Positions 1 to 51,390 of a stretch of DNA of 64,000 nucleotides are shown in pieces. A program made the position numbers and the translations under genes. The stretch's first letter is position 1. Each line of letters begins with the position of its first letter. Source of the DNA: an uncultured Candidatus Saccharibacteria bacterium (GTDB taxonomy: Bacteria; Patescibacteriota; Minisyncoccia; Phycocordibacterales; SBAW01); the NCBI GenBank assembly GCA_964566795.1, contig CAZMIU010000001.1:479090-543089 (forward strand). The letters are read 5' to 3'. The notes under the pieces are model-generated. The model had not been told where the DNA came from. It did not search any database and was given only the letters and a program-made list of their open reading frames with translations.

Positions 1-678
1 GTCTACCCTAGCGTAGAGCTCCCCCATGACTGGAAGAGCATAGGCAAAGAGGTGCAGCTCGAGGCAGCCGAGCCCGCGACCCAGGAGGAGGTCGAGAAGA
101 CCTTGGAGGATTTGCGCCAGAGCAGAAGGGCACCTTCTGCAGAGGGTGCAGAAGGTGCCCTTCCGGATATAAACGATGAGTTTGCCAAGAGCCTAGGCGC
201 ATTTGAGAACGTAGCTTCACTGCGCGAGCAGATCTCCAAGGGCATTGGCGATGAGAAGGCCAGGCAGGCACGCGACAAGCGCCGCAGCAAGATAATCGAG
301 GCTCTGCTTGAGAAGTCGGCTCTCGAGGTCCCTCCCATATTTATCGAAAGCGAGCTGCAGAAGATCATGGCACAAATGAGCGAGGATATCGGCCGCCTGG
401 GCATGAGCATGGACGACTACCTTAAGCGCATGCAAAAGACCGAGGACGATATTAAAAACGAGTTCCGCGACCAGGCACGCAAGCGCGCCAAGCTCCAGCT
501 CTTGTTAAACAAAATTGCCGAGGAGGAAAAGGTGGTCGCGAGTGAGGAGGCCGTGGAGGGCGAGATTAAGCACGCGCTCGAGCACTTCCCCGATGCCAAG
601 CCCGACCTGGTGCGCATCCACATAGAGACGGTCCTGCGCAACGAGCAGGTGCTCAAACTGCTCGAAGAAAGCAAGTAA
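1..678 (+). CDS. tig: trigger factor, C-terminal portion (5' end cut by window edge)
   Basis: Frame is open to base 1. C-terminal trigger-factor-like sequence. Directly upstream of clpP, as in tig-clpP operons. Confidence 0.8.
   Translation, partial: VYPSVELPHDWKSIGKEVQLEAAEPATQEEVEKTLEDLRQSRRAPSAEGAEGALPDINDEFAKSLGAFENVASLREQISKGIGDEKARQARDKRRSKIIEALLEKSALEVPPIFIESELQKIMAQMSEDIGRLGMSMDDYLKRMQKTEDDIKNEFRDQARKRAKLQLLLNKIAEEEKVVASEEAVEGEIKHALEHFPDAKPDLVRIHIETVLRNEQVLKLLEESK
124..163. repeat. Palindromic element copy 1: 17-nt inverted arms gaagggcaccttctgca / tgcagaaggtgcccttc with a 5-nt spacer, inside tig
   Basis: Seen directly in the sequence. The same arms recur at 25750..25787. Confidence 0.7.
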
Positions 679-771
679 AGCACATCGCGCCCACAAGGCG
701 CGATTTTGCAAAAGAAAAGGACCCAGATGCCGTGAGGCAGAGCTGGATCCTTAAAAGCGCCCGAAGGTGCT

Positions 772-939
772 TTACGAACGTCTTATCGTAGGCACTCCCC
801 ACTTGTTGATGGCGGCCAAAGCCACCAATCCCCAACCCAGCGCCACAATAGTGACAACTGGTAACGTTACCGGCGCGTACGAAAGCGCGGCGGCGAACGA
901 GATGAAGAGTGCAAGGATCAGCGACAAGATGAACATCAT
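772..939 (-). CDS. small hydrophobic membrane protein (55 aa)
   Basis: ATGATG start preceded by an SD-like ggagg. Two predicted TM helices. The rest of the long antisense ORF 772..1689 overlaps clpP and is rejected. Confidence 0.4.
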   Translation of the reverse strand: MMFILSLILALFISFAAALSYAPVTLPVVTIVALGWGLVALAAINKWGVPTIRRS

Positions 940-1095
940 GGTAACCTCCTGTGAGTTCTCGCGATAACCCTCGCGAAACGGGAAAGAACAATCTCTTGCT
1001 CTTTTTTTGAGTGGAGATGCAAGTGAGAGAACCACTTGCCCTGTGGTGCTAGTATGACGCTTGAAAGTTGAGCCGTCAACGGGTATGCTGTGCGC

Positions 1096-1725
1096 ATGCA
1101 AAACCCTATCCACAACCAGCTGGTGCCCATGGTGGTAGAGAAGACGCCGTACGGCGAGCGTGCCTTTGATATCTTTAGCCGCCTGCTTAAGGAGCGCATT
1201 ATCTTTTTGACCGGCCCCGTAGAGGACCACATGGCCAACCTCATCATTGCGCAGATGCTCTTTTTGGAGAGCGAGGATCCTAAGAAGGATATCTATCTCT
1301 ATATCAACTCCCCTGGCGGCTCTGTCTCGGCCGGGCTCGCAATCCTCGACACCATGAACCACGTTAAGCCCGACGTGGCTACCGTGTGTGTGGGCATGGC
1401 AGCCTCTGCAGCGGCAGTTATCCTCGCGGCTGGAGAGAAGGGCAAGCGCTTTGCGCTCCCTAACTCCGAGGTGATGATCCACCAGCCATGGGGCGGCGCG
1501 CAGGGCCAGGCTACCGACATCGAGATTACAGCCAAGCACATTTTGGCCACCCGCGACCGCCTCAACAAGATACTCTCCAAGGCTACCGGCCAGTCGCTTG
1601 AAAGAATAGAGAAGGACGTAGACCGGGACTACTTTATGATGGCCGACGAAGCCAAAAAGTATGGCCTCATAGACGCCATCTTTACCCAAAAAGGCCTGGG
1701 CACCCCCACCGCCAGCAAGAAATAG
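1096..1725 (+). CDS. clpP: ATP-dependent Clp protease proteolytic subunit
   Basis: Full-length ClpP similarity ([18 protein letters not shown], catalytic Ser/His region). ATG at 1096; alternative starts are GTG 1090 or ATG 1129. Confidence 0.93.
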
Positions 1726-1832
1726 CCCCTAAACCCCGCCCCTTGGGCGGGGTTTTTGGTTGCGTTGCGGCCTTTTGCGTACATGCTATTCTGAGGCTGT
1801 GCATTTCACTACAAAATTCATGAACGCTTTCT

Positions 1833-3362
1833 ATGTCATTAAAACTACTGTTTACCCTCCTGGCTCTCGCGGCCTTAGGGGGAGCCGTGCTGGGCTTTGT
1901 CCTGCGCTGGCTCTTGGTGCTCGCTCGTAAAGGCTCAATAGAAATAGAGGTAAAGCAAATTCTCCTAGACGCAAACGTACAGGCCCAAAAGATAACCGAA
2001 GAGGCCGACACCAAAGCCAAGGAGGTGGTAGCCGCTGCCGAGGCAACCCTAGCCGAGAAGGAGGAGAAGGTAACCCGCGCGGAGGAGCGTGTCTTTAAAC
2101 GTGAAGAGGCTCTGGACAAAAGCCGAGCCGAGCTCGAGGCAGAGGTTGCCGCTGTTAAGGCAAAGATAGAGGACGTACGCGCCATTAAGGAGCGCGCCGA
2201 AGCTCTTTTGGCCGAGCGCCAGGGCGAGCTGTCTAAGGTTGCCGGGCTTACCGCCGAGGAGGCCAGACAGCAGCTTATGGCCGAGGTAGAGCGCGCATCT
2301 GCAGAGGACCTTATGATGCGTGCAGCCAAGCTAGACCGCGACGGCCACGAGAGGCTCGAGCGCAAAGCGCGCGACATTTTGACCACCGCCATACACCGCC
2401 TGGGCAACTCTGTGGCCTCCGACACGATGGCCACTGCCATCACGATCCCCAACGACGAGCTCAAGGGCAAAATTATCGGCAAAGAGGGCCGCAACATTAA
2501 GGCGTTCGAGCGCGCCACTGGGGTTGAGGTAATCATCGACGACACACCGGGTTCTATCGTGCTCTCAAGCTACGACCCGCTGCGCCGCGCTATTGCGCGC
2601 ATGGCGCTGGAGAACCTTATTGTCGATGGTCGCATCCAGCCTGCCAAGATTGAGGAGACCGTGGAGAAGGCGCGCAACGACGTTAACAAAATTATTAAGG
2701 AGAAGGCCGACGCAGCCGCATTTGAGGCCGGCGTACTTAATCTCGACCCTAAGCTCCTCATGATATTGGGCCGCCTCCACTTCCGCACCAGCTACGGGCA
2801 GTCCGTGCTGCAGCACTCGGTTGAGATGGCGCATATTGCCGGCATGCTCGCAGAGGAGCTTGGGGCGAATCCTCAGGTGGCGCGCGCGGGTGCGCTTTTG
2901 CACGACATTGGCAAGGCCCTAGACCACGAGGTGCAGGGCACACATGTAGAAATTGGCCGCAGGGTACTGCAGAAGTTTGGCGTGCACGAGGATGTTATTA
3001 AGGCCATGCAGGCCCACCACGAGGAGTACCCGTACGAGACGCTTGAGAGCTACATCGTGCAGGTGGCCGACGCCATATCGGGTGGCCGCCCCGGTGCGCG
3101 CCGCGACTCTGTGGAGCAGTACATCAAGCGCCTCCAGGACATCGAGGGCATTGCCAACTCCTTCCCCGGTGTCGAGAAGTCGTTTGCTATATCGGCCGGC
3201 CGCGAGGTGCGGGTGTTTGTAAAGCCCGATGAGATGAGCGACTTCCAGGCGCGCGAGCTTGCCCGCAACGTGGCACTGCGTATTGAGAACGAGCTTAAGT
3301 ACCCGGGCGAGATAAAAGTAAACGTCATCCGCGAAACCCGCGCAATCGAGTTTGCCCGGTAA
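1833..3362 (+). CDS. rny: ribonuclease Y (N-terminal TM, KH and HD domains)
   Basis: N-terminal TM helix, coiled-coil, KH and HD domain motifs (LHDIGKA). Confidence 0.92.
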   Translation: MSLKLLFTLLALAALGGAVLGFVLRWLLVLARKGSIEIEVKQILLDANVQAQKITEEADTKAKEVVAAAEATLAEKEEKVTRAEERVFKREEALDKSRAELEAEVAAVKAKIEDVRAIKERAEALLAERQGELSKVAGLTAEEARQQLMAEVERASAEDLMMRAAKLDRDGHERLERKARDILTTAIHRLGNSVASDTMATAITIPNDELKGKIIGKEGRNIKAFERATGVEVIIDDTPGSIVLSSYDPLRRAIARMALENLIVDGRIQPAKIEETVEKARNDVNKIIKEKADAAAFEAGVLNLDPKLLMILGRLHFRTSYGQSVLQHSVEMAHIAGMLAEELGANPQVARAGALLHDIGKALDHEVQGTHVEIGRRVLQKFGVHEDVIKAMQAHHEEYPYETLESYIVQVADAISGGRPGARRDSVEQYIKRLQDIEGIANSFPGVEKSFAISAGREVRVFVKPDEMSDFQARELARNVALRIENELKYPGEIKVNVIRETRAIEFAR

Positions 3363-3380
3363 AATTGTGAAAAGAAAAAA

Positions 3381-3408
3381 CCGCCGCGAAACCTCGCGGC
3401 GGTTTTGT
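3381..3408 (+). terminator. rho-independent terminator after rny
   Basis: GC hairpin ccgccgcgaaacctcgcggcgg followed by TTTT. Confidence 0.7.
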
Positions 3409-3574
3409 TATGCGAGTATCATGTAAACACCCTACCCAGCAATCTGACGTACCCCCTCCCCCATCGCGTATACCGAAAGAACAGAAACGCTGCAGCAAAA
3501 CCATAAGCGATTGCAAAATATTCCATCTGTCACTCCCACTGTTGATGTACGTCTCGATGAGAATTCGATTTGAA

Positions 3575-3610
3575 TCAAATTCTCAATAGAGGGGAGGAAT
3601 TGCTTCCTCC
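3575..3610. repeat. Cassette-boundary repeat copy A: conserved motif tcaaattctcaatagaggggag plus hairpin ggaggaa-ttgc-ttcctcc, just 3' of the - strand gene 3618..4037
   Basis: 21/23 nt identical to the copy at 4090..4111. Both are followed by a different but compensatory hairpin. Flanking similarity extends about 60 nt. Confidence 0.6.
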
Positions 3611-3617
3611 CGAGTTT

Positions 3618-4037
3618 TTACTCCCCCTCCTTTACTGCAATCAGAGTAAGGTTTGGATTGTCGCGCTGAAACTCTGCAGCTTCTTGCAGAGAGTTAAACG
3701 GGCCGAATCTCGCCGCGTAGAGGCGCACGCTAGAGAAATCCCCTTTGTCATGCACCCAGCCAAGCCAGTATTTAGAGAAGTGCTTAGCTTCATACTCCCT
3801 GCCCGCTTGGAATGCCTTGCCCATCATCCTCTCCAACAACGGAGACCTGGAGTCTGGCCCCGTGTAGACATCCATACTGAGCGCAGCAAAGAGTAGATTT
3901 GTTATATCTTCGTCCCACTGGTCAAGATACGGGCCGAAATCCTCCGACGCCAGGATTAGATTGACGTCATTCTCCTCCACCTCCTCGTCCCGTTCTGGTA
4001 GCACGCAACAGTGATCGAAGTAATAGTAGAACCACAT
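3618..4037 (-). CDS. hypothetical acidic protein (139 aa)
   Basis: Strong SD AGGAGGGGG 5 nt before ATG. Low-GC region. No recognisable domain. Confidence 0.6.
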   Translation of the reverse strand: MWFYYYFDHCCVLPERDEEVEENDVNLILASEDFGPYLDQWDEDITNLLFAALSMDVYTGPDSRSPLLERMMGKAFQAGREYEAKHFSKYWLGWVHDKGDFSSVRLYAARFGPFNSLQEAAEFQRDNPNLTLIAVKEGE

Positions 4038-4089
4038 AGCCCCCTCCTATTTGTGTGAATGTACTTCTAAATGAAAATCCGAAAGCGTT

Positions 4090-4129
4090 TCAGATTCTCA
4101 ATAGAGAGGAGAAGCGCGTGCGCTTCTCC
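4090..4129. repeat. Cassette-boundary repeat copy B: motif tcagattctcaatagagaggag plus hairpin ggagaagcg-cgtg-cgcttctcc, just 3' of the - strand gene 4136..4477
   Basis: See copy A. The hairpin starts 6 nt after the stop codon, the same layout as copy A. Confidence 0.6.
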
Positions 4130-4135
4130 AAAGTT

Positions 4136-4477
4136 TTAGTCGTCCCTACAGTCATCCCTCCAGTCGTCCTCGAAGAGCTCATCGAGCTCGCCAGGATCGG
4201 GATTGGGGTCGTGGTCGTCGGGGTCGTCTTCCACGAAAGGCCAATCAGGATGTGCGTAGCGCAGTTTCTCTCCGTTTGGAAAGAATTCGCGCTGCGCCTC
4301 TCCGAGCTGGCGGTTCAGTTCCCTGACCAGGGGGTTGGACGGTACCTCATGGTCATAGAATTTGGACTCTATGTCATCCATAAGGAATACGACACTCGTA
4401 ATGAAGTCGTCCTCGGTTGTGCTAGCAATCGCCACCCATTTAAGGATGAGATAGGCGTAGCGGTCGTAGTCAATCAT
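4136..4477 (-). CDS. hypothetical highly acidic protein (113 aa, D/E/P-rich C-terminal tail)
   Basis: Strong SD AGGAGGGGACC before ATG. Start context nearly identical to that of 3618..4037. Confidence 0.6.
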   Translation of the reverse strand: MIDYDRYAYLILKWVAIASTTEDDFITSVVFLMDDIESKFYDHEVPSNPLVRELNRQLGEAQREFFPNGEKLRYAHPDWPFVEDDPDDHDPNPDPGELDELFEDDWRDDCRDD

Positions 4478-4661
4478 GGTCCCCTCCTAGGGTTGGCCTG
4501 TGGGCCTTGTGGATGATCGTAACTGACAACATTATGCCTTGTTTGGCAAGTCTAGTCAAAAACTAGGGTTACAAAAGACCAAAATACCCTTGTTTTACAA
4601 GCGTATTCTAAAGGTAGTCAAAATACTTGACCAAAAGGGGCGTTTGGCATATCCTGTAGCT

Positions 4662-5420
4662 ATGGAGCAACCCAACGCCGACCTGGCCAAAAACCTAGAG
4701 CAAATAGGCCTCTCCCCCAAGGAGGCCCAGGTCTACCTGGCTCTTTTGGGCCTTGAGAGCTCTACCGCCTACGAGATAGCCCAGCACTGTGAGGTTAAAA
4801 AGCCCACCGTATACGTAATTTTGGAGGATTTGCGCCAAAAAGGGCTTGTTTTAAAGGTCCCCCACCCCCGCAAGGCCATATTTGCCGCCCGGGACTTGGG
4901 CGAGTACCTGCTAGAGCAAAGAGGCAAGCTCAACGCCGTGCAGTCTATGATGCCGCGCCTTATGAGCTTGGGCGGCAAAAACAAGCCTAAAGTGTACTTT
5001 TACAGCGGGATGAGGGGCTTTACCGAGGCGATGAACTATAAGTTTGACTCTATGCGCGGCAAAACCTACTACTCGTTTTATGGCAACTCTAAGGACGCAG
5101 ACCGCCGGGTGGTAGAGCTTTTTAACCGCTGGACCCCAGAGGCGGTAGCCTCGGACATCTCCTTTAGGATAATTATGCCTAAGACGCAGGTTTTGACAGA
5201 CGACTACCCCGAGCTCCAGAGCTTAAACGAGACAAAAGACCATGTAGAGATAAAATACATGTCCGAGTACGAGCAGGAGAGCAATCTCTCTATAGAGATA
5301 GCCGAGACGTTTGTGCGTATAGACGACTCCAAGCATGTAACAGCGACAATAATAGACGACCTGGCCACGGCGCAGGCCATGCGGCATATCTTTGACATTG
5401 TCTGGCACAAGGGCGTATAG
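4662..5420 (+). CDS. TrmB-family HTH transcriptional regulator
   Basis: N-terminal winged HTH (LSPKEAQVYLALL...STAYEIAQ...KPTVYVILEDLRQKGLV) typical of the TrmB family. The ATG at 4662 is chosen over the upstream extension of the ORF. Confidence 0.7.
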   Translation: MEQPNADLAKNLEQIGLSPKEAQVYLALLGLESSTAYEIAQHCEVKKPTVYVILEDLRQKGLVLKVPHPRKAIFAARDLGEYLLEQRGKLNAVQSMMPRLMSLGGKNKPKVYFYSGMRGFTEAMNYKFDSMRGKTYYSFYGNSKDADRRVVELFNRWTPEAVASDISFRIIMPKTQVLTDDYPELQSLNETKDHVEIKYMSEYEQESNLSIEIAETFVRIDDSKHVTATIIDDLATAQAMRHIFDIVWHKGV

Positions 5421-5455
5421 TGCCCGGCGAAGAGTTCTAGCTATAGGAGGGCCGC

Positions 5456-5839
5456 ATGGCCATATCTAAAGTCTTTGCCGTTTGCCTTGGCGATGCAGCT
5501 TCAATTAGCAAAGGGCAATTGCTCGAGGAGTATTTGAAGTACCACCCCCACTTCAGGTTGTGGTTTTTCAAGCCCGAGCCGGGCAAGCAGAATCTCGAGA
5601 ATATGGCTCTGCGCTTGGCCCGCATAGCCAAGGACGCCGACATACTTATCGCTGTGCAGGGATCGACGCACCCAATAGAAGGAGTGCCGGCCGACGAGGT
5701 GCATATGTACATCAAGGGCTATGAAAGGAGTCACTTTGTCGAGTTTTATCCGACGGAAGGGAGCAATCCTCCCCACAAGGAACTCGCAAAGGACCTCGCC
5801 TTGCTGTCGTTTGCACGGTTGCATATGCGCATGCAGTGA
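5456..5839 (+). CDS. hypothetical protein (127 aa)
   Basis: Perfect SD AGGAGG 5 nt upstream of ATG. Followed by a strong terminator. Confidence 0.6.
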   Translation: MAISKVFAVCLGDAASISKGQLLEEYLKYHPHFRLWFFKPEPGKQNLENMALRLARIAKDADILIAVQGSTHPIEGVPADEVHMYIKGYERSHFVEFYPTEGSNPPHKELAKDLALLSFARLHMRMQ

Positions 5840-5848
5840 CACGCTGAG

Positions 5849-5878
5849 CGCCGCCCGGTCTGGGCGGCGCTTTTTTTG
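5849..5878 (+). terminator. rho-independent terminator
   Basis: gcgccgcccggtctgggcggcgc followed by TTTTTTT. Confidence 0.8.
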
Positions 5879-5996
5879 ACACTTTTTGATATTTTGTCTA
5901 TCCCCGGCCACTGTATTGCACCGTTTTATGAGGGGGGTATACTAGCGGCGCAGGGCAAACTTCCATTTATTAGCCTTACTTAAGCATATTCTAGGT

Positions 5997-6269
5997 ATGA
6001 ATAAGCAAGATATCGCGGAAAAAGTGCATGGTGTCCTTGGGACAACCAAGGCAGATGCCGAGCGCGCTGTCGAGACAATGATTGATGCAATCGTTGCCGA
6101 GCTCAAGCGCGGCGGCGAGGTCTCGGTAGCCGGTCTTGGTATCTTTAAGACCAAGATGCGCGCTGCCCGCCAGGCACGCAACCCGCGCACGGGTGCAACT
6201 GTGCAGGTACCCGCCATGCGCGTCCCCAAGTTCCAGCCTGCAAAGGCACTGAAGGAAGCAGTTAAGTAG
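5997..6269 (+). CDS. hup: DNA-binding protein HU
   Basis: Full HU/IHF-family signature (GxGxFxxxxRxARxGRNPxTGxxxxI). Confidence 0.93.
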   Translation: MNKQDIAEKVHGVLGTTKADAERAVETMIDAIVAELKRGGEVSVAGLGIFKTKMRAARQARNPRTGATVQVPAMRVPKFQPAKALKEAVK

Positions 6270-6283
6270 TATCCTCTCGAAAG

Positions 6284-6313
6284 AAAAGGCCCCGAGCAAT
6301 CGGGGCTTTTTCT
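6284..6313. terminator. bidirectional intrinsic terminator (hup on +, DUF3298 gene on -)
   Basis: ggccccgagcaatcggggc flanked by an A-run and a T-run. Confidence 0.7.
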
Positions 6314-6314
6314 T

Positions 6315-7112
6315 TTACTTATTCATCTCACTCAGCGGGAGGCGGACCTCAAAGGAGCCGGCCGCGTAGGCTGCCACCTGGTAGGGCGGGATGAGTATAA
6401 GGAGGTCTCCGTCGTCGAGAGCAAAGTTCTTAAAGTTTTCCTCCTTGGCGGCCAAGCCCTCGGCAAATATAGAGCCCGTAACATCTGCGCCCTCGTCGCC
6501 TTCTGGCAATGAGGCGGCCAGCCGCTGTTTAAGTTGTGCAGTTATATCCTGCGACACCAATAGCGAGAGCTCCTCAAGCCAGTTGGGGTTTTTGCTTAGC
6601 ACATCACCCAGCGAGAGCTGCGTGCCATCCTGACCAAACGTATAGGTGAGGTAGAAGGTGTTGGGGTGCGCACCCAGCGTGTCTGCGTACACCTGATACA
6701 CATAGGAGATGGTGGAGGTAGAGGTATAGCGCCTGTACTCCATGTCGAGTGCGTACTTACGCTCGCCATTTAGCCCCTGTATCCGCGCGTCCTCTGCAGT
6801 AAGGAGGTCGAGATTGCTGTCGTTTTTAAACTTGGCGATCTCCCCCGCCAGCCCCTGTTCTATGGTGGTGCGCACGCGGGCGTCTGCCGCAGCCTCTAAC
6901 CCCGTGTTGGCCGGGTAGTCGGCCACGATGCGGTAGTAGGGCTTGTCCTCTGAGTATTGATAGTCACCATTGGTGCTCAGTGTGCCGCCCAAAATGTCGC
7001 TCTTGTCTCCTGCCACAGGCGTTGGCGCTGAGGTAAACGAGGCAATGCCGGCAAAAATAAGCCCGAGGACAATCAAAACACAGAGGACAGACAGTATTTG
7101 TTTGGTAGACAT
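6315..7112 (-). CDS. DUF3298/DUF4163 (RsiV-like) domain secreted or membrane-anchored protein
   Basis: N-terminal TM or signal anchor. C-terminal PPYQVAAYAAGSFEVRLPL is typical of DUF3298. ATG at 7110-7112 chosen; the ORF track uses an upstream TTG. Confidence 0.7.
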   Translation of the reverse strand: MSTKQILSVLCVLIVLGLIFAGIASFTSAPTPVAGDKSDILGGTLSTNGDYQYSEDKPYYRIVADYPANTGLEAAADARVRTTIEQGLAGEIAKFKNDSNLDLLTAEDARIQGLNGERKYALDMEYRRYTSTSTISYVYQVYADTLGAHPNTFYLTYTFGQDGTQLSLGDVLSKNPNWLEELSLLVSQDITAQLKQRLAASLPEGDEGADVTGSIFAEGLAAKEENFKNFALDDGDLLILIPPYQVAAYAAGSFEVRLPLSEMNK

Positions 7113-7157
7113 GGGCGTAGTATACAATAATGAGGTTTTAAAGAGTAAAACCTACTA

Positions 7158-7228
7158 GCGGGACTAGTTTAATGGTAGAACATCAGTTTTCCAAACTGAG
7201 AGCGGGAGTTCGATTCTCCCGTCCCGCA
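7158..7228 (+). tRNA. tRNA-Gly (anticodon TCC)
   Basis: Cloverleaf folded by hand: acceptor gcgggac/gtcccgc, anticodon stem tcagt/actga, loop tttccaa, T-loop ttcgatt. No CCA encoded. Confidence 0.8.
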
Positions 7229-8101
7229 CTAGATAGCACTCCACCGGGCAAAGATGCCGGCGGGGAGTAGGCGCTCGCCCTGCTCCTCTGCTATTGCCAA
7301 GTCGCCGTACTCTATACGGCCGCCAAATTTTTTATTTATACTCTCGAGGTTATAGGCAAACGCCAGGGGCGAGTAGCCCGCAGCATAGCCGTTTACAAGC
7401 ACAAACAGCGGGCTGTCGCTCAAAAGCTGCTCGCACAGCCCCATAAGCTCTACAAAGTGCTCGTCAAACTTCCACAGCTCGCCATCTGGCCCGTGGCCAA
7501 AGGCAGGCGGGTCCATCACTATGGCGTCGTACCTGCTCCCACGCTTTATCTCGCGGCGCAAGTATACGAGCACATCCTCCACTATCCAGCGTATAGGGGC
7601 TCCCGCTAGCCCATTAGCCTCGGCATTCTCGCGTGCCCAGGCTACTGCAGTCTTAGAGGCATCTACATGGGTCACCTCGGCCCCCGCTTTGGCAACGGCC
7701 AAGGTGTAGCCGCCTGTATAGCCAAAGAGATTGAGCACTTTAGGGGCAGCCGCAAGGTTCGACCTTGCGGAAATTTGCCGCATAGCCCACTCCCAACCCG
7801 GTACATGCTCGGGGAATACGCCTACATGCTTAAAAGATGTGGGCTTCACTATCATCTTGAGCCCGCCAAGCTCTATCTGCCAGCCTTGAGGCATATTGCC
7901 TGTCCACTTTCCTTCCTCGCCCTGGCGAACATAGTAGCCATCGGCAGACGACCACTCGCCTTCCCTGCCCTTAGGCCATAGAGCCTGCGGGTCCGGCCGG
8001 GCGACCACCTGGTCGCCAAAGCGCTCGAGCTTAGCCTCGCCCCCAGAGTCTATAAGGGCGTACCCGCCCTGTGCCTTGGTAATTAAAGTTATTCTGTCCA
8101 T
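7229..8101 (-). CDS. class I SAM-dependent rRNA methyltransferase (RlmI/RlmK-like)
   Basis: Rossmann SAM motif (VLNLFGYTGGYTLAVA...DASK...VMDPPAF) with an N-terminal PUA-like region. Start trimmed to ATG 8101 because the ORF's upstream extension overlaps tRNA-Pro. Confidence 0.75.
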   Translation of the reverse strand: MDRITLITKAQGGYALIDSGGEAKLERFGDQVVARPDPQALWPKGREGEWSSADGYYVRQGEEGKWTGNMPQGWQIELGGLKMIVKPTSFKHVGVFPEHVPGWEWAMRQISARSNLAAAPKVLNLFGYTGGYTLAVAKAGAEVTHVDASKTAVAWARENAEANGLAGAPIRWIVEDVLVYLRREIKRGSRYDAIVMDPPAFGHGPDGELWKFDEHFVELMGLCEQLLSDSPLFVLVNGYAAGYSPLAFAYNLESINKKFGGRIEYGDLAIAEEQGERLLPAGIFARWSAI

Positions 8102-8108
8102 ACTCTTG

Positions 8109-8182
8109 TGGTCGGGGTGCCCAGAATCGAACTGGGCCATCTTGCTCCCAAAGCAAGCGTACTACCGATATACGACACCCCG
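8109..8182 (-). tRNA. tRNA-Pro (anticodon TGG), CCA encoded
   Basis: Acceptor cggggtg/caccccg, anticodon stem cttgc/gcaag, loop tttggga, T-arm cccag-ttcgatt-ctggg, 3' CCA. Confidence 0.8.
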
Positions 8183-8240
8183 TATAGTTATTTCTACTGT
8201 GTCCTTTATGTCCTTTATCAAGGACATCCTTGGAACACGC

Positions 8241-8648
8241 TTACAATATCATGTTTTCTAGGATTTCCACCCTAGCCCGACGGGTTATAAAGTCTAGATA
8301 TACACAGGCCACGTCTATCTGCCAGTCGGTCGTCTGGGCGACCTTATGGTCTATAAGATAGGTCTGTATAGCCCTATGGAGCCGCTTGAGCTTAGCCGGA
8401 TGGACGTTATCCTCTGGCCTATAGGCAGTTACACGTGAATCCCCTACCCCACTATCCCCTCTAGACGTATCACGTGAAACTGTCTTCACTTCCACAAAAT
8501 AAAGCTTTGACTCCTTTTTAGCCACAATATCTATCTCGCCCCAAGGTTTGAGGTAATTACGCTCAAGGACGCTAAATCCCCTGCCCTTTAGGTATTCACA
8601 GGCTACTTCCTCCCCCGTATCTCCTATAGTCCTCTTGGCTGTTTTCAT
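8241..8648 (-). CDS. yraN: YraN-family (UPF0102) endonuclease
   Basis: GEEVACEYLKGRGFSVLERNYLKPWGEIDIVAKK...FVEVKT matches UPF0102. The internal Met is used; the N-terminal ORF extension is not credible. Confidence 0.75.
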   Translation of the reverse strand: MKTAKRTIGDTGEEVACEYLKGRGFSVLERNYLKPWGEIDIVAKKESKLYFVEVKTVSRDTSRGDSGVGDSRVTAYRPEDNVHPAKLKRLHRAIQTYLIDHKVAQTTDWQIDVACVYLDFITRRARVEILENMIL

Positions 8649-8904
8649 GTGAAATGTTTCATAAGAAACGTATATAGGCCCTAAAAGCCGTCTTTTATGT
8701 CCCCATGTCCCCAAGTTTATCCACAGATATCCCCAGAAAGGTTGAAGGATAAGGGTTTCTAATGCCCTAGGGCTAGCTGTCGTTTTAAAGTCCTTGTGGG
8801 ATAAGGATTTTACTAACCATACTGCGGCTATGCCTAGGATGCCTAGGCATAGCCGCACGTCGTCACAACTATGTAAAAGCTAGCTTTTACTAGCTTGCTG
8901 CTAG

Positions 8905-8974
8905 TGCGGTTAGGGAGAATCGAACTCCCGTCTCGTCCTTGGCAAGGACGCGTTCTACCACTAAACCATAACCG
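8905..8974 (-). tRNA. tRNA-Gly (anticodon GCC)
   Basis: Reverse complement gcggttatggtttagtggtagaacgcgtccttgccaaggacg...ttcgattc...: anticodon stem cgtcc/ggacg, loop ttgccaa. Confidence 0.75.
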
Positions 8975-9022
8975 CTTCGTGAACGACTATAGCATGGATT
9001 TCCTGCTAAGATAAAGCCGTGC

Positions 9023-9098
9023 GCGCTCGTAGCTCAATGGATAGAGTACTTGGCTTCGAACCAAGGGGTTGGGGGTTCGAGTCCCTCCGAGCGCACCA
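9023..9098 (+). tRNA. tRNA-Arg (anticodon TCG), CCA encoded
   Basis: Acceptor gcgctcg/cgagcgc, anticodon stem cttgg/ccaag, loop cttcgaa, T-loop ttcgagt, 3' aCCA. Confidence 0.75.
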
Positions 9099-18393: not shown

Positions 18394-18744
18394 ATGGACA
18401 CAGAGAATTTTATAATAAAGCTCAAAGAGGAGCAGGATTTGCTTATCAAGCAGCTTGGCGATATTGCGGTAGAGAATGACAACGGCACGTGGAGCGTTAA
18501 GGCGCCGGAGATGGATGTTATGAGCCCTATAGCCGAGCCCAACGAGGCTGCAGACAAACTTGAGGAGATAGACGAGCGCGAGGAGGAGGTAGTAACCCTG
18601 GGTGCCCGCCTGAGCGAGGTACGCCGCGCACTCCAGTCTTTTGATGAGGGGACCTACGGTATCTGCGAGGTATGCCAAAAGCACATTGAGGAGGAACGCC
18701 TGGAGGCCAACCCGGCCGCCCGCACCTGTGTTGAGCACATGTAA
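18394..18744 (+). CDS. DksA/TraR-family C4 zinc-finger protein
   Basis: C-terminal CEVCQKHI...ARTCVEH zinc finger and an acidic coiled-coil. Confidence 0.75.
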   Translation: MDTENFIIKLKEEQDLLIKQLGDIAVENDNGTWSVKAPEMDVMSPIAEPNEAADKLEEIDEREEEVVTLGARLSEVRRALQSFDEGTYGICEVCQKHIEEERLEANPAARTCVEHM

Positions 18745-18780
18745 AGAAAAAGCCCCGGCATTCGCCGGGGCTTTTTTGTT
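18745..18780. terminator. bidirectional intrinsic terminator
   Basis: agccccggcattcgccggggct flanked by an A-run and a T-run. Confidence 0.8.
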
Positions 18781-18964
18781 AGCGACCAAAGGAGCGGTAG
18801 GACATGTAGTCCGAAGCAGGGGCGTGCCTGCGAGAAAACGCGGTGCGCTCATGCGTCGTGCGCGCAATACCGGAGTGGGGTCTGTTGTAGCCAAAAGACT
18901 GAGCGGCGCCATAGAGCAGTAATGCCACAACAAGAGCCGACCCATAAAACAGTGCTGACTTCAT
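18779..18964 (-). CDS. small secreted or membrane protein (61 aa)
   Basis: SD GAGGA 6 nt before ATG. N-terminal hydrophobic signal MKSALFYGSALVVALLLYGAAQS. Confidence 0.45.
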   Translation of the reverse strand: MKSALFYGSALVVALLLYGAAQSFGYNRPHSGIARTTHERTAFSRRHAPASDYMSYRSFGR

Positions 18965-22257: not shown

Positions 22258-22290
22258 CGAAAAACTCCGGCATGAGCCGGAGTTTTTACT
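22258..22290. terminator. bidirectional intrinsic terminator
   Basis: aaaaactccggcatgagccggagttttt. Confidence 0.75.
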
Positions 22291-23589: not shown

Positions 23590-25488
23590 ATGAACCCGCA
23601 TGCTGGATTAAACACTGCACAACAGGATGCGACTAAATCAATACATGGACCACTGTTGGTGCTGGCTGGGGCCGGCGCAGGCAAGACCAAGGTCATTGCC
23701 CACCGGATTTTGGAGATTGTAAGGCAGGGGGCGGCCCCGCAAGAGGTTCTGGCTATCACCTTTACCAACAAAGCGGCGGGGGAAATGCGCGAGAGGGTGG
23801 TCGGGCTCCTCAAAGAGCACGGTCATGGGGGCTCCGGAGCGCCATTTGTATCCACCTTTCACTCCCTGGGACTCTCTATTATTAAGGAGCATGCCAAGCT
23901 CCTCGGGTACAGGCGCGCGCCGGCTATATATGACCGGGCCGACTGCTTGAGCGAGATTAAGGCAGCGCTCAAGGCCATAGGCGAGGTTGAGTTTGAGCCC
24001 CGGATGGTCCTGGGGGCAATCTCGCGCGCCAAAGGCGACGGCCTTACACTCGGGGCCTACAGCGAGCGGGCGAGCAACTTTAGAGAGCGAGCTATTGCAA
24101 CCGCCTGGAACCTCTACGAGCAGGCGCTAAAAAAGGATGGCGCTGTAGACTTTGACGACCTTTTGCTTAAGGCGGTCGAACTGCTCACACAACACCCAGA
24201 GATCCGCGCTGCCTACCACAAGCGCTGGCGCTATGTACATATAGATGAGTATCAGGACACCAATATTATCCAGGACCGCTTGGCCGACTTGTTGGTAGGG
24301 CCGGAGCGCAACATCTGTGTGGTGGGCGACCCCGACCAGACCATTTATGGATGGCGCGGTGCCAAGATAGAAAATATTTTGCACTTTGAGCGAAAATATA
24401 AAGACGCGAAGGTAGTGACCTTGGAGGAAAACTACCGCTCGAGCAAAAATATTTTGGACGCGGCAAATAATCTTATTGCCAACAACCCAAACCGCCCCGA
24501 AAAAAACCTCAGCACATCGCGCGGACCGGGAGAGCAGCTCTCCTTATATATGGCAGGAGACGGGGGAGACGAGGCACTGTTTGTGGCACGAAAAATTGGC
24601 GAGCTCAGAGACGAGGGGGTATCGTGCGAGAACATTGCGGTGCTGTACCGCGCCAACTTCCAGTCGCGCGCCATAGAGGAGAAGTTGCTCGACAACTCTA
24701 TCCCGTATCAAGTGCTTGGCACGCGCTTTTTTGAGCGCAAGGAAGTTAAGGATGTGTTGTCATTTATACGCGCCGCTACCAGTGAGACTCCGGCCGACCT
24801 GGGCCGCGTTATAGACACCATGCCGGGTATGGGCAAGGTGACCAAGCTCAAGATTTTGTCGGGCCAAGAGTCGGCGCTGCCGGCCAAAATGCGTGAGCGT
24901 GTGTCTGGTATGCGTGCTCTGCTTAAAAAAATACAGACAAGCACGGACACCATGCCGCCATCGCAGCTGGTGCGGATGGCGGTCGTTGATAGTGGGATTG
25001 AAAAGACTCTCAAAGAGGACAAACTCGAGGGCGGCGAGCGCCTGGAGAACCTGGCCGAGCTGGTCTCCTTGGCATCGCGCTACGACAAACTCCCGCCGCC
25101 GCAGGGATTGGAGATGTTTTTGGAGAGCGCCGCACTTGCGAGCGACCAGGACGAGATTAAAGATACCGAGAGTAAAGTGCGTCTTATGACCGTGCACGCG
25201 GCCAAGGGGCTCGAGTACGCATATGTGTTTATTGTGGGGCTTGAGGAAGGGCTCTTCCCGTACTCACGCGAGGATGATGCAAAAAACAGCATCGAGGAGG
25301 AGCGCCGGCTTATGTATGTCGCCCTTACCCGTGCCAAGAAAAAGCTCTATCTCTCATTTGCTATGATGCGCACGGTGTTTGGCAACCTCGACATGCGCCA
25401 AGCCTCGTCATTTTTGGAGGAATTGCCGGGTGGGCTTATACTCGCCGAGACCCCGGAGCGGCTGGGCAAAACAATATACTTAGACTGA
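23590..25488 (+). CDS. pcrA: ATP-dependent DNA helicase UvrD/PcrA family (short, 632 aa)
   Basis: Superfamily-1 helicase motifs (AGAGAGKT, DEYQDTN, YRS, VHAAKGLEY). Confidence 0.9.
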   Translation: MNPHAGLNTAQQDATKSIHGPLLVLAGAGAGKTKVIAHRILEIVRQGAAPQEVLAITFTNKAAGEMRERVVGLLKEHGHGGSGAPFVSTFHSLGLSIIKEHAKLLGYRRAPAIYDRADCLSEIKAALKAIGEVEFEPRMVLGAISRAKGDGLTLGAYSERASNFRERAIATAWNLYEQALKKDGAVDFDDLLLKAVELLTQHPEIRAAYHKRWRYVHIDEYQDTNIIQDRLADLLVGPERNICVVGDPDQTIYGWRGAKIENILHFERKYKDAKVVTLEENYRSSKNILDAANNLIANNPNRPEKNLSTSRGPGEQLSLYMAGDGGDEALFVARKIGELRDEGVSCENIAVLYRANFQSRAIEEKLLDNSIPYQVLGTRFFERKEVKDVLSFIRAATSETPADLGRVIDTMPGMGKVTKLKILSGQESALPAKMRERVSGMRALLKKIQTSTDTMPPSQLVRMAVVDSGIEKTLKEDKLEGGERLENLAELVSLASRYDKLPPPQGLEMFLESAALASDQDEIKDTESKVRLMTVHAAKGLEYAYVFIVGLEEGLFPYSREDDAKNSIEEERRLMYVALTRAKKKLYLSFAMMRTVFGNLDMRQASSFLEELPGGLILAETPERLGKTIYLD

Positions 25489-26216
25489 TGCTTAAGAAGA
25501 AATCACTCGGGCAGCATTTTCTGAATAATAAGAGCCACCTTAACGCGGTGGCTGATGCTGCGGATATCAAAGCGGGGGAGACCGTGATAGAGATTGGCCC
25601 GGGCGAGGGCGCGCTTACAGCGGTGCTCCTGGAGAGGGGAGCCAGCGTGATAGCACTGGAGAAAGACGCGCGGCTTATAGATGTGCTCAAGGAAAAATTT
25701 AGGGGCCAGGACTTTGAGGTCATAGAGGGCGATGCGCTGGATTTCGATACAGAAGGGCACCTTCTGCATGCAGAAGGTGCCCTTCTGTCATACAAAGTGG
25801 TGGGTAATGTGCCGTACTACATTACCGGTGCTTTGTTTAAAAAGTTTTTAAGCGGCACAAAGCAACCCTCTACACTCGTATTTTTAGTGCAAAAGGAGGT
25901 CGCTGAGCGCATCGCCAAAGAAAAGAAAGAGTCCATACTCTCGCTGTCTGTTAAAGCGTACGGGCATCCGAAGTATATAAAGACAGTCCCGGCGGGAGCG
26001 TTTGTACCGCCGCCCAAGGTAGACTCGGCCATACTTCTTGTCTCTGATATCTCCCGCAAAAACTTTAAAAACAAAAAACACGAGGAGACCTTTTTCGAGC
26101 TCATTAAAAAAGCATTCGGCCAGAAGCGCAAAATGCTGCGCGCCACGATAGGTATTGACTCGAGCAAAAGGCCAGAAGACCTCTCACTCAGTGAGTGGCT
26201 CAAACTTTCTTTATAA
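25488..26216 (+). CDS. rsmA: 16S rRNA (adenine1518/1519-N6)-dimethyltransferase
   Basis: [18 protein letters not shown] and NVPYYIT motifs. ATGA overlap with the upstream gene's stop. Confidence 0.9.
25750..25787. repeat. Palindromic element copy 2: perfect 38-nt palindrome cagaagggcaccttctgcatgcagaaggtgcccttctg inside rsmA
   Basis: Seen in sequence. Shares its 17-nt arms with the copy at 124..163. In-frame, encoding [13 protein letters not shown]. Confidence 0.7.
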
Positions 26217-44098: not shown

Positions 44099-45196
44099 AT
44101 GAAATTTGAGACAACAACAGAAACATTCAGTCAGGCGGTCTCAACTGCAAACAGGTTTACTGAACGCAGGGCAAACCTGCCGGTACTTGGCTGCGTGCTT
44201 ATTGTTGCAAAAGGCTCTAAGGTCGTTTTACGCGCAACCAATCTTGAATGTGGGGTGGAGATCGTGGTACCCGCAAAAGTTGCGTCTGAGGGCACCACAG
44301 CGGTTCCTGCAGGGGTGTTGAGCGGCTTCCTGAGTAATGCGCGCAGCGCCTCTATACAAGTGTCTTTAGCGGGTGAGGTTTTTAAAATAGAGAGCAACAG
44401 GGCAAGTGCCTCTATAAAAACTATCCCGCATGAGGACTTCCCTATACTCCCTAGAGTCTCTACTGAGCAATCGTTTACCATCAAAGCGTCTGACTTGGTG
44501 CGCGCTATACGCTCTGTAGCGTACTGTGCCTCACTCTCAGCTATAAAACCCGAGCTCCAGAGTGTGCTCTTGTACGCAGAGGCGGGGAAGCTGACTGCAG
44601 TAGCTACAGACTCGTTTAGGTTGGCTGAGAAGCAGGTTCCCTTTAAATCCGGGGAAGATGTGCCACAGCTTTTGGTACCAGCGCGCAACGCGGCCGAGCT
44701 TATGCGCGTGCTTGAGCATGTGGATGGTGATGTTGAGATGTTTTATAACGAGAATCAGATTTCTACTGAGGCAGATGGGTTGTACTACACCTCACGCTTG
44801 CTTGATGGTGCATTTCCTAACTATAGGCAGGTGTTGCCAAAGCAATTTAGTACTGAGGGGTTGGTCTTACGAGAGGATATGTCGCAGGCGCTAAAGTCTC
44901 TCTCGATATTTGCAGACAAGTTTGCACAGGTATTGGTGCAGATCGACCCCGCAAAAAAAGCTCTTGTACTCTCCTCGCGCAACCCTGATGTTGGCGAGCA
45001 GATCTCGACCGTTAAGGCGACCATAGAGGGCGACCCTGTGTCTGTGTCGTTTAACGGCCGCTACTTGGCCGACTCATTGCAGTCGATAGTGGGGGACTCT
45101 GTGCGCCTGCATAGTAACGGCGCCGGCAAACCCATGCTTATAAAAGACGCCTCCGACGACTCCTTCCTCTACCTGGCAATGCCCATGAACCGATAA
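44099..45196 (+). CDS. dnaN: DNA polymerase III beta sliding clamp
   Basis: Three-domain beta-clamp similarity; dnaA-dnaN synteny. Confidence 0.93.
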   Translation: MKFETTTETFSQAVSTANRFTERRANLPVLGCVLIVAKGSKVVLRATNLECGVEIVVPAKVASEGTTAVPAGVLSGFLSNARSASIQVSLAGEVFKIESNRASASIKTIPHEDFPILPRVSTEQSFTIKASDLVRAIRSVAYCASLSAIKPELQSVLLYAEAGKLTAVATDSFRLAEKQVPFKSGEDVPQLLVPARNAAELMRVLEHVDGDVEMFYNENQISTEADGLYYTSRLLDGAFPNYRQVLPKQFSTEGLVLREDMSQALKSLSIFADKFAQVLVQIDPAKKALVLSSRNPDVGEQISTVKATIEGDPVSVSFNGRYLADSLQSIVGDSVRLHSNGAGKPMLIKDASDDSFLYLAMPMNR

Positions 45197-45197
45197 A

Positions 45198-45232
45198 CAA
45201 AAACTCCCGGAGGAATCCGGGAGTTTTTGTTA
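45198..45232. terminator. bidirectional intrinsic terminator
   Basis: aaaaactcccggaggaatccgggagttttt. Confidence 0.8.
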
Positions 45233-48799: not shown

Positions 48800-48805
48800 A
48801 GTAAA

Positions 48806-48838
48806 AAGAAAACCCCGGAGTGTTCCGGGGTTTTTCTT
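48806..48838. terminator. bidirectional intrinsic terminator
   Basis: aaaaccccggagtgttccggggttttt. Confidence 0.8.
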
Positions 48839-48981
48839 TACATCGCCTCTTCGTCGAGACCGTCTGCGGCCTCGTCATCCTCGTCGTCATCCTCGTCCTC
48901 ATCGGCGCCCTCGCCGGTGGGGGCGTTGTCGAGCTCCTCCTCCTCGTCGAGCCTGAAGCCCTCGTACAATTCGTCGTGCAT
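48838..48981 (-). CDS. possible acidic micro-protein (47 aa, D/E-rich)
   Basis: Hand translation MHDELYEGFRLDEEEELDNAPTGEGADEDEDDDEDDEAADGLDEEAM. No SD; could be a non-coding spacer. Confidence 0.2.
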   Translation of the reverse strand: MHDELYEGFRLDEEEELDNAPTGEGADEDEDDDEDDEAADGLDEEAM

Positions 48982-51347: not shown

Positions 51348-51390
51348 CAAAACCCCCGGAGGTCATTATTGACCCCCGGGGGTTTTGTGT
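51348..51390. terminator. bidirectional intrinsic terminator after the pilB-like gene
   Basis: aaaacccccgg...ccggggg followed by tttt. Confidence 0.7.

Follow-up and report, generated by a model that had tools for sequence, protein, structure and literature searches.

The locus considered here raises the question of what kind of element is represented by a perfect palindrome that lies inside the coding sequence of rsmA, the gene for an rRNA dimethyltransferase, and how it came to be there. The palindrome is found in a 64,000-nt stretch of contig CAZMIU010000001.1 (called the window below, at its full length; coordinates without a locus label are those of the window, and labels beginning with L and P are ours for other loci and for proteins). 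The results presented here make it likely that the palindrome is a REPIN-type doublet, i.e. two units of a repetitive extragenic palindrome (REP) in inverted orientation, and that a Y1 (HUH) transposase resembling the REP-associated tyrosine transposases (RAYTs) is encoded elsewhere in the genome of the same Patescibacteria (Paceibacterota) organism. The kind of element, namely a REP doublet (REPIN) with a cognate RAYT-like transposase, goes beyond the identification made in a preliminary description of the same DNA. The basis for it is the existence of a repeat family, the hairpin and doublet anatomy of its members, their association and co-variation with a transposase and the in-frame location of the copies, and further a bias in reading frame, compensatory changes in the stems and the slow evolution of the arms. 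The gene and the element within it comprise the following features.

25488..26216, + strand: rsmA/ksgA, open reading frame (ORF) for the 16S rRNA A1518/A1519 dimethyltransferase, 242 aa (Pfam RrnaAD, E=1.1e-49)
25750..25787, no strand assigned: REPIN copy in rsmA, two inverted and abutting REP units whose 17-mers are 4 nt apart (CATG)
25750..25766, + strand: first REP unit, CAGAAGG-GCA-CCTTCTG, with a 7-bp stem (9 bp with the flanking TG/CA) and a GCA loop, read EGHLL
25771..25787, - strand: second REP unit, reverse complement of the first, CAGAAGGTGCCCTTCTG on the + strand, predicted translation EGALL

The palindrome, CAGAAGGGCACCTTCTGCATGCAGAAGGTGCCCTTCTG, is identical to its own reverse complement and its symmetry extends by one base on either side, so that positions 25749-25788 (40 nt) consist of two 20-nt arms which are 100% complementary with a gap of 0. 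The chance of a 20+20 perfect palindrome in 64 kb is ~64000 x 4^-20, or roughly 6e-8. It codes in frame for 14 residues (about 88-101 of the protein) between motif III (EGDAL) and motif IV (GNVPY), and the motifs I (GPGxG), III (GDAL) and IV (GNxPY) of RsmA are invariant in the alignment of its orthologs. In an AlphaFold2 model of the window's RsmA (pLDDT 90.4 overall), whose best Foldseek matches are the KsgA structures 6IFT, 3TQS, 3FTF and 1QYR with TM-scores of 0.82-0.84, the insert is flanked by strand 76-80 carrying motif III and by strand 102-110 carrying motif IV, and its pLDDT of about 70 fits a flexible loop. As single-stranded DNA, the rsmA doublet folds into an 18-bp hairpin (-21.8 kcal/mol, z = -9.3). 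An Rfam scan of the window found 8 tRNAs only, with no match at the palindrome. When the window was searched with the 17-mer CAGAAGGGCACCTTCTG allowing <=3 mismatches, 7 matches were obtained as against 0.21 expected from shuffles, and a covariance model of the unit, run with filters off, detected just four units, which make up two doublets. One of these is in rsmA, where the two units score 36.1 and 35.8 bits, and the other is in tig; no further degenerate copies were found in the window by either search. The claims of the preliminary description that an exact palindrome lies within rsmA, that it is in frame and that it is one copy of a repeated element therefore hold, the ORF being intact across the palindrome and the coordinates 25750-25787 corresponding to the core of the element. 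The gene carrying the second copy is cut by the start of the window.

1..678, + strand: 3' part of tig (trigger factor), the full protein of which (P0244, 346 aa) contains Trigger_N and Trigger_C only
123..165, no strand assigned: second REPIN, in tig, with units at 123-139 and 149-165, 9 nt apart (CAGAGGGTG)

In the tig copy, 17-nt arms of 100% complementarity enclose a gap of 5 nt; the copy is read RRAPSAEGAEGALP and occupies the linker between the two domains. The two doublets fold as single-stranded DNA with -21.8 and -22.6 kcal/mol (z = -9.3 and -8.5). We also observed that the trigger factor in this lineage (window 1-678; L006:6080-7195) is without the FKBP-type peptidyl-prolyl isomerase domain, and that the linker holding the REPIN is the place of this domain in canonical trigger factors. 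If the rsmA palindrome stood by itself, it could be regarded as an artefact of assembly or sequencing, or as a product of local template switching, and a second independent assembly of the rsmA copy was indeed not found. However, three independent Logan assemblies contain the tig copy with 100% identity; the doublet, including the zero-spacer form that is seen in rsmA, is present in unrelated datasets, e.g. L008 and L012; the intact rsmA frame is not what an artefact would lead one to expect; and a variant of the element is found in the same RsmA loop of another organism. An artefactual origin is, in view of these observations, scarcely credible.

The comparison of copies from different sources reveals the anatomy of the element. 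The basic unit is a hairpin of 17-21 nt, (TG)CAGAAGG-GCA-CCTTCTG(CA), in which TG...CA often extends the stem to 9 bp. The element consists of two such units in inverted orientation, which is the layout of a REPIN, the second arm being the reverse complement with the loop TGC. The order is always unit(+) followed by unit(-), as the scan pattern required, and the 17-mers are 3-15 nt apart with a spacer of variable sequence. Among 50 distinct units, 15 central positions are invariant or nearly so, and conservation is higher on the spacer side (CTG-C/T-A) than on the outer one; the position table of these 50 units reads (T/A)(G/A)CAGAAGG...CCTTCTG(C/T)A, in which neither a GTAG nor a CGTC tag occurs. 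Genomes and loci of 38-64% GC share one and the same 17-mer. At a transposase locus described below, the unit TGCAGAAGG-GCA-CCTTCTGCA forms a hairpin of 9-12 bp (-8.8 to -12.1 kcal/mol, z = -3.8 to -4.4). One example of a compensatory change is provided by L024 and L016, where CTGCA/TGCAG in the stem has become CTGTA/TACAG. The hairpin is under selection, as its pairing is kept by compensatory variants of this kind and its arms evolve more slowly than the flanks. In one short metagenome contig (L022:152-208), three REP units are present in alternating orientation, 3 nt apart (TTG), and the units can thus form arrays beyond doublets. A CRISPR or TIGR repeat was also considered and was rejected, as what is found are single in-frame doublets rather than arrays.

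The distribution of the doublets was investigated by means of scans in which both arms had to be exact and any short spacer was accepted, and which covered species-representative genomes, metagenome contigs and viral contigs. The exact-arm doublet was found at 8 places in the species-representative genomes and at 13 in the metagenome contigs, and there were 0 matches in the viral contigs. The genome matches are in Paceibacterota or unclassified metagenome-assembled genomes, one of which (DATKGU01) has four doublets on three contigs, plus one contig end that was binned as Chitinophagaceae. In this last case (JBGTIL01), the doublet is at the extreme end of a 3,987-nt contig (L001:18-54), which may be a mis-binned Patescibacteria contig or may carry a copy outside the phylum. 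When the window and loci found later are included, the distinct doublet loci number 22, of which 16 lie in frame in genes that can be recognised and that belong to 11 families. Besides RsmA, the hosts recognised by Pfam are RNase HII, RsmH, an HhH-GPD glycosylase, trigger factor, LepA, MnmA, MiaA, RecR (where the copy sits between two Cys pairs of the zinc finger), a class-V aminotransferase/cysteine desulfurase and Dus. Other copies are located outside genes and around a transposase gene. The LepA copies of L007 and L024 are both in a loop of the G domain. In the LepA of a third organism (L027:10994-11059), an imperfect AT-rich palindrome with GAAATCCGAAATC repeats (70% complementary) is seen in the same G-domain loop, and RsmA orthologs with loops such as DFDISTSRNFDISRDRF may carry an element related to it. 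Further, the cysteine desulfurase gene of L016 contains two in-frame copies of another palindromic element, AAAAGCCAAAGTCGGACTTT ... AAAGTCCGACTTTGGCTTTT, at 6662-6718 and 7424-7478 (coded peptide SQSRTFGTGAVQSPTLA); together with its REPIN, this one gene has three palindromic inserts.

The manner in which these copies are read is informative as to the level at which the repeat exists. The second unit invariably yields EGAL(L/P/Q); the first yields RRAPS in 8 families (GRAPS in one tig copy, that of L020), EGHLL in 2 (rsmA and dus) and QKGTFC in 1 (rnhB), the preferred reading of the doublet being RRAPSA..AEGALL. For doublets whose length is a multiple of three there are 3 possible frames. The same one is used by all eight families, and the two alternative frames that contain Cys are largely avoided. 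Translation of the copies, combined with the purging of harmful frames, would produce a bias of this kind, which argues against the element being spliced out or bypassed; an intron, an intein or a bypass element was rejected on the ground that the frame is always kept and one reading is preferred, which points to translation through the element. One could also suppose that the segment is a motif or loop selected at the protein level for the function of RsmA, with the DNA palindrome being incidental, in agreement with the in-frame position of the insert and with the recurrence of RRAPSA..AEGALL in many proteins. However, the same DNA is read in several frames (EGHLL in rsmA and dus, RRAPS in tig and others, QKGTFC in rnhB), and since the first unit of the rsmA doublet is read in another frame than that of the tig doublet, the repeat should be interpreted as an entity of DNA and not as a peptide motif. 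In addition, the occurrence of copies outside genes and around the transposase gene, the functionally unrelated nature of the host proteins, the existence of RsmA orthologs without the insert and its prediction as a loop of low confidence all speak against selection for a peptide, which is consequently a very improbable explanation.

The association with a transposase is clearest in L023, a small metagenome contig in which four units (211-977) surround and enter a 222-aa ORF (288-953): a doublet is present upstream, one unit is in frame inside the ORF, and one unit is located 7 nt past the stop. The protein matches Pfam Y1_Tnp ('Transposase IS200 like') with E=1.1e-11 (45.4 bits, cutoff 23), and its sole NCBIfam match is to REP_Tyr_transpos (NF047646) with E=9.4e-16 and 58 bits. 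As the curated cutoff of the latter family is 80 bits, the transposase is RAYT-like and should not be taken as an equivalog of the proteobacterial RAYTs. It has thousands of homologs, many of them named as Patescibacteria/Paceibacterota, Kaiserbacteria or Zambryskibacteria, and some are labelled RayT by JGI. An alignment of 43 sequences shows no variation in the HUH motif MPNHFH or in the tyrosine motif Y-I-H-x-N-P. The best solved relative, as found by a profile of this alignment, is E. coli TnpA-REP (4ER8, E=0.0017), which aligns over the HUH and Tyr motifs. The match to ISDra2 TnpA (2XM3) is weak, the IS200/IS605 transposases giving about 0.8 compared with 0.0017 for 4ER8. A search of the Protein Data Bank with the single sequence P0140 gave 0 matches.

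The arrangement seen in L023 is repeated elsewhere. The homologs P0140 and P0160 are 52-59% identical and show the same arrangement with the same 17-mer. In the case of P0140 (L025/L026; L025:1061-1768), one unit is ~19 nt before the likely ATG, a degenerate unit is present in a variable loop, an exact unit inside the ORF is read QKVPFC, and another exact unit is 13 nt past the stop, giving a total of 3 exact and 1 degenerate units at this locus. For P0160 (L027/L028; L027:5675-6398; GC 38%), there is a unit upstream, one inside (RRAPSA) and one 2 nt past the stop. In more distant clades, the same three positions are occupied by other hairpins, namely CCCTTGAAGGGTCTCTTCAAGGG in L029 (5972-6707) and CCAGAGGGGAACCCTCTGG in L030 (5944-6718); the REP and the transposase thus co-vary. 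This picture, in which the transposase gene has its own REPs on either side and each clade has a different REP, is what defines a REP-RAYT unit (PMC5581495; PMC3733652). In every transposase gene examined, besides the flanking copies, the gene's own REP is also in frame in a variable loop of the ORF, where it is often read RRAPSA. The QKVPFC unit of P0140 is at the site of a conserved (R/Q)xGTLC motif, which resembles the REP frame QKGTFC. The REP inside the transposase ORF could reflect self-regulation or the origin of the REP.

These observations also bear on the possibility that the gene belongs to an ordinary, autonomous and multi-copy insertion sequence of the IS200 type, of which the doublets would be deletion derivatives similar to miniature inverted-repeat transposable elements, in place of a single-copy RAYT that is inherited vertically with its REPINs. 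The assignment to Y1_Tnp by Pfam, a score under the NCBIfam RAYT cutoff and the layout of the doublet, which corresponds to a left end and a right end with the gene removed, can all be accounted for in this manner. However, TnpA-REP is the closest solved relative by the E-values given above; the flanking genes vary among lineages, but two samples of one organism agree in them; each transposase cluster is on few contigs (that of P0140 on 2 Logan contigs with identical neighbours); and the occurrence of the same REP with transposases that are just 52-59% identical points to a long vertical association. A multi-copy insertion sequence is accordingly quite improbable as the source of the doublets.

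Several observations connect the transposase with the organism from which the window is derived. For P0140, for the RsmA of the window (P0001) and for Tig (P0244) alike, the NCBI contig on record has a length of 590,566 nt. Logan contigs from the runs SRR14271365 and SRR14271372 are 100% identical to window positions 1-8941 and 1-2957, and both P0140 contigs come from the same two runs (GC 55.5% vs 54.6%). It is therefore very likely that the window's organism encodes the P0140 transposase.

Comparison with orthologous genes indicates when and in what manner the rsmA copy arose. Among the 120 closest RsmA clusters, the REP-coded peptide is present in one, which is the window's own protein. The nearest orthologs, which are 84-86% identical, have PTFKN or ISNYFSKAKK at the position of the insert, with loop DNA unrelated to the element; as these orthologs are without it, the rsmA copy is young relative to the splits between them. 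In the clade as a whole, the segment from GDAL to GN[IVL]PY is 11-23 residues long, with 12 as the most frequent length, then 17; in the window it has 21 residues. The net effect of the element is +9 aa in comparison to the 234-aa type and +4 aa in comparison to the 239-aa type, and only T and S remain at its sides. The element thus effectively replaces a hypervariable loop of RsmA and should not be viewed as a simple addition to it. Another RsmA ortholog, P0099 (77% identity, L037:766-804), has in the same loop, in a segment that is also of 21 residues, a variant REPIN, TGCAGATGGGCACCATC-CGCGC-GATGGTGCCCATCTGCA, whose unit differs from that of the window by a compensatory stem change (GAAGG/CCTTC to GATGG/CCATC). 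The peptide that it encodes, ADGHHPRDGAHL (type ADGHH..DGAHL), is found again in RsmA P0034 and also in transposase P0219, there in the variable loop. The presence of this variant indicates that REPINs of different families have repeatedly settled in the RsmA loop, where they are tolerated, and that they account for part of the variation in its length.

The preliminary description had proposed a lineage-specific insertion at a place where KsgA proteins normally have only a short linker, and it had raised the question whether the insert is a surface loop. The lineage-specific nature of the insertion is confirmed by the single cluster in 120 and by the differing sequences of orthologs at 84-86% identity. 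The statement about a short linker has to be qualified, the loop being variable over 11-23 residues in this clade. Orthologs with a segment of equivalent length, which it named as evidence against its proposal, do exist to some extent, but they do not refute it: P0099, a 21-residue ortholog for which the DNA was examined, has a variant REPIN of its own in the loop. The structural model places the insert in a predicted loop between motifs III and IV, where a pLDDT of ~70 is consistent with flexibility. Thus, of the earlier interpretation as a whole, the in-frame, lineage-specific and repeated palindrome stands, and the short loop has to be replaced by a variable one.

An intact REP-coded linker is present in 7 of 120 trigger factor orthologs, and several others resemble decayed versions of it, e.g. 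SRRGPPSADAPEGGPLPE and SRKGPASGTEAGPLPD. A relative (L032) with ~89% nucleotide identity and conserved gene order has the orthologous tig copy with one change, located in the spacer, and the copies in L033, L006 and L020 occupy the same linker. The arms of these tig copies are identical to those of the window at 32-34 of 34 positions, compared with 60-87% identity in the flanking coding DNA, and the spacers differ (binomial P 0.01 to 8e-7). Since the arms evolve slowly in relation to the flanks, they must be constrained at the nucleotide level, and the source of this constraint is either recognition by the transposase, gene conversion among copies, or host function. In an 'empty' tig ortholog (L031:1501-2547, 82% identical, compared with window 100-170), an unrelated linker is present, of 42 nt vs 45 nt. 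The resemblance of the peptide of an ordinary tig linker, SRATKDAEGKEVLP, to the REPIN is suggestive; the DNA of the nearest empty allele has, by eye, no visible similarity.

If the constraint on the arms is due to host function, then the hairpin would be a nucleic-acid signal that is useful to the host and kept by selection, with the link to the transposase being secondary. Candidates for such a signal are an mRNA structure that pauses the ribosome between folding units, an RNase III site, or a site for a DNA-binding protein or for DNA uptake. The near-identity of the tig arms beside a drifting spacer, the maintenance of pairing by compensatory changes, the very stable RNA fold around the rsmA copy (-45 kcal/mol, z = -5.8), the retention of one 17-mer across genomes of 38-64% GC and the tendency of copies to be at inter-domain or loop positions are all in keeping with this. 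However, the unit flanks the transposase gene at three loci, and other clades have other hairpins. Clade-specific flanking hairpins are what recognition by a cognate transposase predicts, and such recognition would by itself constrain the arms. Further, the host genes and the positions within them are heterogeneous, and RsmA does not need the copy, as only 1 of 120 close clusters contains it. Uptake sequences are far denser than two copies per 64 kb, and no T-run follows the hairpin, on which ground an intrinsic terminator was rejected. We therefore consider a host signal a clearly unlikely explanation for the palindrome.

The process by which a REPIN with its transposase would have given rise to the rsmA palindrome can be outlined from the biology of E. 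coli TnpA-REP and of the IS200/IS605 elements (PMC3479197; PMC6006769). By analogy with these, the transposase would recognise the REP hairpin on single-stranded DNA, probably at replication forks, cut beside the hairpin through a 5'-phosphotyrosine link, and move or copy the doublet to new places. The copies that survive would be those which landed in, or replaced, tolerant surface loops or linkers of proteins with the frame kept and a harmless reading, and the gene density of these genomes would account for survivors being found in such places. These copies would be transcribed and translated within the host protein, the outcome for RsmA being a 14-residue loop between motifs III and IV, and survival would be limited to proteins tolerating 13-15 extra or substituted residues. 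Catalysis by the transposase, a mechanism acting on single strands, mobilisation and translation of the insert are thus parts of this reading that we infer by analogy.

A number of points weigh against the REPIN-RAYT interpretation. The transposase is below the NCBIfam RAYT equivalog cutoff (58 vs 80 bits), the unit is without the GTAG/CGTC tag that marks most described REPs, and the density of 2 doublets per 64 kb is low. When the L023 transposase was compared by tblastn with the window and with all loci, the 64-kb window yielded no homolog, and the connection of P0140 with the window consists of shared runs, GC content and the same contig figure of 590,566 nt rather than of contiguous sequence. 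From the alignments to 'empty' rsmA and tig orthologs, neither the boundaries of the element nor a target-site duplication or a precise empty site can be defined. In tig as well as in rsmA, the element stands in place of a segment that is about as long, and the empty alleles have unrelated DNA there, so that at this divergence there is no clean empty site. Replacement of this kind would not be expected from simple cut-and-paste insertion, and a further (deletion) step is needed, which is where the mechanism is least complete. Host function could also be the reason for the strong conservation of the arms at orthologous sites, and the activity of the transposase and the expression of the copies are predictions from sequence.

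The interpretation could be extended to state that the hairpin doublets represent an ancient and widespread REPIN-RAYT system of Patescibacteria which normally resides inside essential genes, which recolonises or overwrites the same loops (RsmA III-IV, the LepA G-domain hairpin, the trigger factor linker) and is a main source of the variation in loop length among the proteins of these reduced genomes. The hairpin itself would be under selection, as its arms evolve more slowly than the surrounding coding DNA, and the transposase may regulate itself through its own REP. This extension is tentative and, in our view, rather unlikely to hold in full. If it were true, then these elements would be co-opted parts of gene expression or protein evolution, and not mere parasites.

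The REPIN-RAYT interpretation, in its narrower form, has several consequences. It would place the same kind of system in the small, gene-dense genomes of the candidate phyla radiation (CPR), with most of the copies found being in frame inside essential genes, and it would supply a concrete source, at the level of DNA, for odd lineage-specific loop insertions in CPR proteins. With regard to annotation, RRAPSA..AEGALL, EGHLL and ADGHH..DGAHL should be read as peptides coded by repeats and not as functional motifs. The copies also constitute a natural experiment that reveals which protein loops tolerate 13-15 arbitrary residues. Lastly, owing to the conservation of the arms, the compensatory changes and the REP in the transposase ORF, tests of persistence, host benefit and RAYT specificity become possible in a new lineage.

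The window also contains inverted repeats of other kinds. An unrelated perfect palindrome at 8823-8857, with 16-nt arms TGCGGCTATGCCTAGG / CCTAGGCATAGCCGCA and a 3-nt gap, adjoins tRNA genes (8905-8975, - strand; 9023-9095, + strand) and the 5' end of a UPF0102/YraN-like ORF (8241-8858, - strand). Hairpins consisting of an A-run, a GC-rich stem and a T-run, at 18742-18781, 45196-45231, 48804-48839, 51348-51387, 22260-22287 and 3377-3406, resemble bidirectional intrinsic terminators and are unrelated to the REP family.

It remains to be considered how the element compares with systems that are already known. REPINs and RAYTs are, to our knowledge, known almost only from Proteobacteria, and REPs are extragenic by definition. 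With the REP/REPIN-RAYT systems as defined in the literature (PMC5581495; PMC3116915), represented by TnpA-REP 4ER8 and the Pseudomonas REPINs, the present system shares a short hairpin, inverted doublets with a variable spacer, copies that are dispersed over the loci collected here and persist at orthologous sites, and a Y1/HUH gene that is flanked by its own REPs, which co-vary with the clade. It differs from them in that the copies are mostly intragenic and in frame rather than extragenic, in a length of 38-47 nt, in the absence of the GTAG/CGTC tag, in a low density (in the part of the genome scanned) compared with the hundreds of copies in Pseudomonas or E. coli, in the REP inside the transposase ORF, in a 17-mer that is constant over transposases of 52-59% identity and 38-64% GC, in a transposase of about 215-226 aa compared with 165 aa for E. 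coli RayT, and in its Patescibacteria host. Thus, in terms of the strict description of a REP, the hairpin, the doublet and a RAYT flanked by REPs are present, whereas the extragenic location and the GTAG/CGTC tag are not; in terms of a RAYT, the sequence has the HUH motif and a putative single catalytic Tyr, with a score below the NF047646 cutoff.

Palindromes within genes are not without precedent. Intragenic REPs and REP dimers coding for 20-30 residues are present in Opitutus terrae, Rickettsia conorii (RPE-4/6) and others, where their hosts include genes for tRNA-modifying and repair enzymes, and where most of the repeats are intergenic and only the smaller part lies within genes; the classic case of an in-frame palindrome is RPE-1 (PMC3733652). 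With these, the present copies share the occurrence of palindromes, often dimers, in frame in housekeeping genes, where they would be translated as extra loops. Compared by length and description rather than by the consensus sequence of the Rickettsia palindromic elements (RPEs), they differ in being 38-47 nt long and in having a cognate transposase. RPE-1 was reportedly described by Ogata et al. in 2000 as about 100-150 bp, and we know of no dedicated transposase for RPEs or CGTC REPs. As intragenic REPs and the in-frame RPE-1 have already been reported, the phenomenon itself is not new. What is new here is the Patescibacteria host, the very small size of the element, coding sequence as its main location, the REP inside the transposase ORF, the retention of one 17-mer across transposases that are 52-59% identical, and the repeated colonisation of the same loops. 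No paper combining RAYT or REPIN with Patescibacteria, and no earlier description of such an element in CPR bacteria, was found in the literature searched, the coverage of which was incomplete.

More distant comparisons can be made with three other systems. The inverted repeats in coding sequences of Nematomorpha mitochondria (PMC6649704) share the tolerance of hairpin repeats in coding sequence and their translation; the hosts and sequences differ. The small dispersed hairpin repeats of cyanobacteria, which Elhai et al. are said to have described in 2008, are likewise very small mobile units, with unrelated hosts and different sequences, and for the nematomorph and the cyanobacterial repeats alike we know of no described association with a RAYT. 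Finally, the IS200/IS605 elements (IS608, ISDra2) share the Y1 HUH transposase and, by analogy, subterminal hairpins that would be recognised on single-stranded DNA. However, no TnpB was seen beside the gene studied here, the mobile unit appears to be the hairpin doublet rather than the gene, and the transposase is closer to 4ER8 than to the members of that family.

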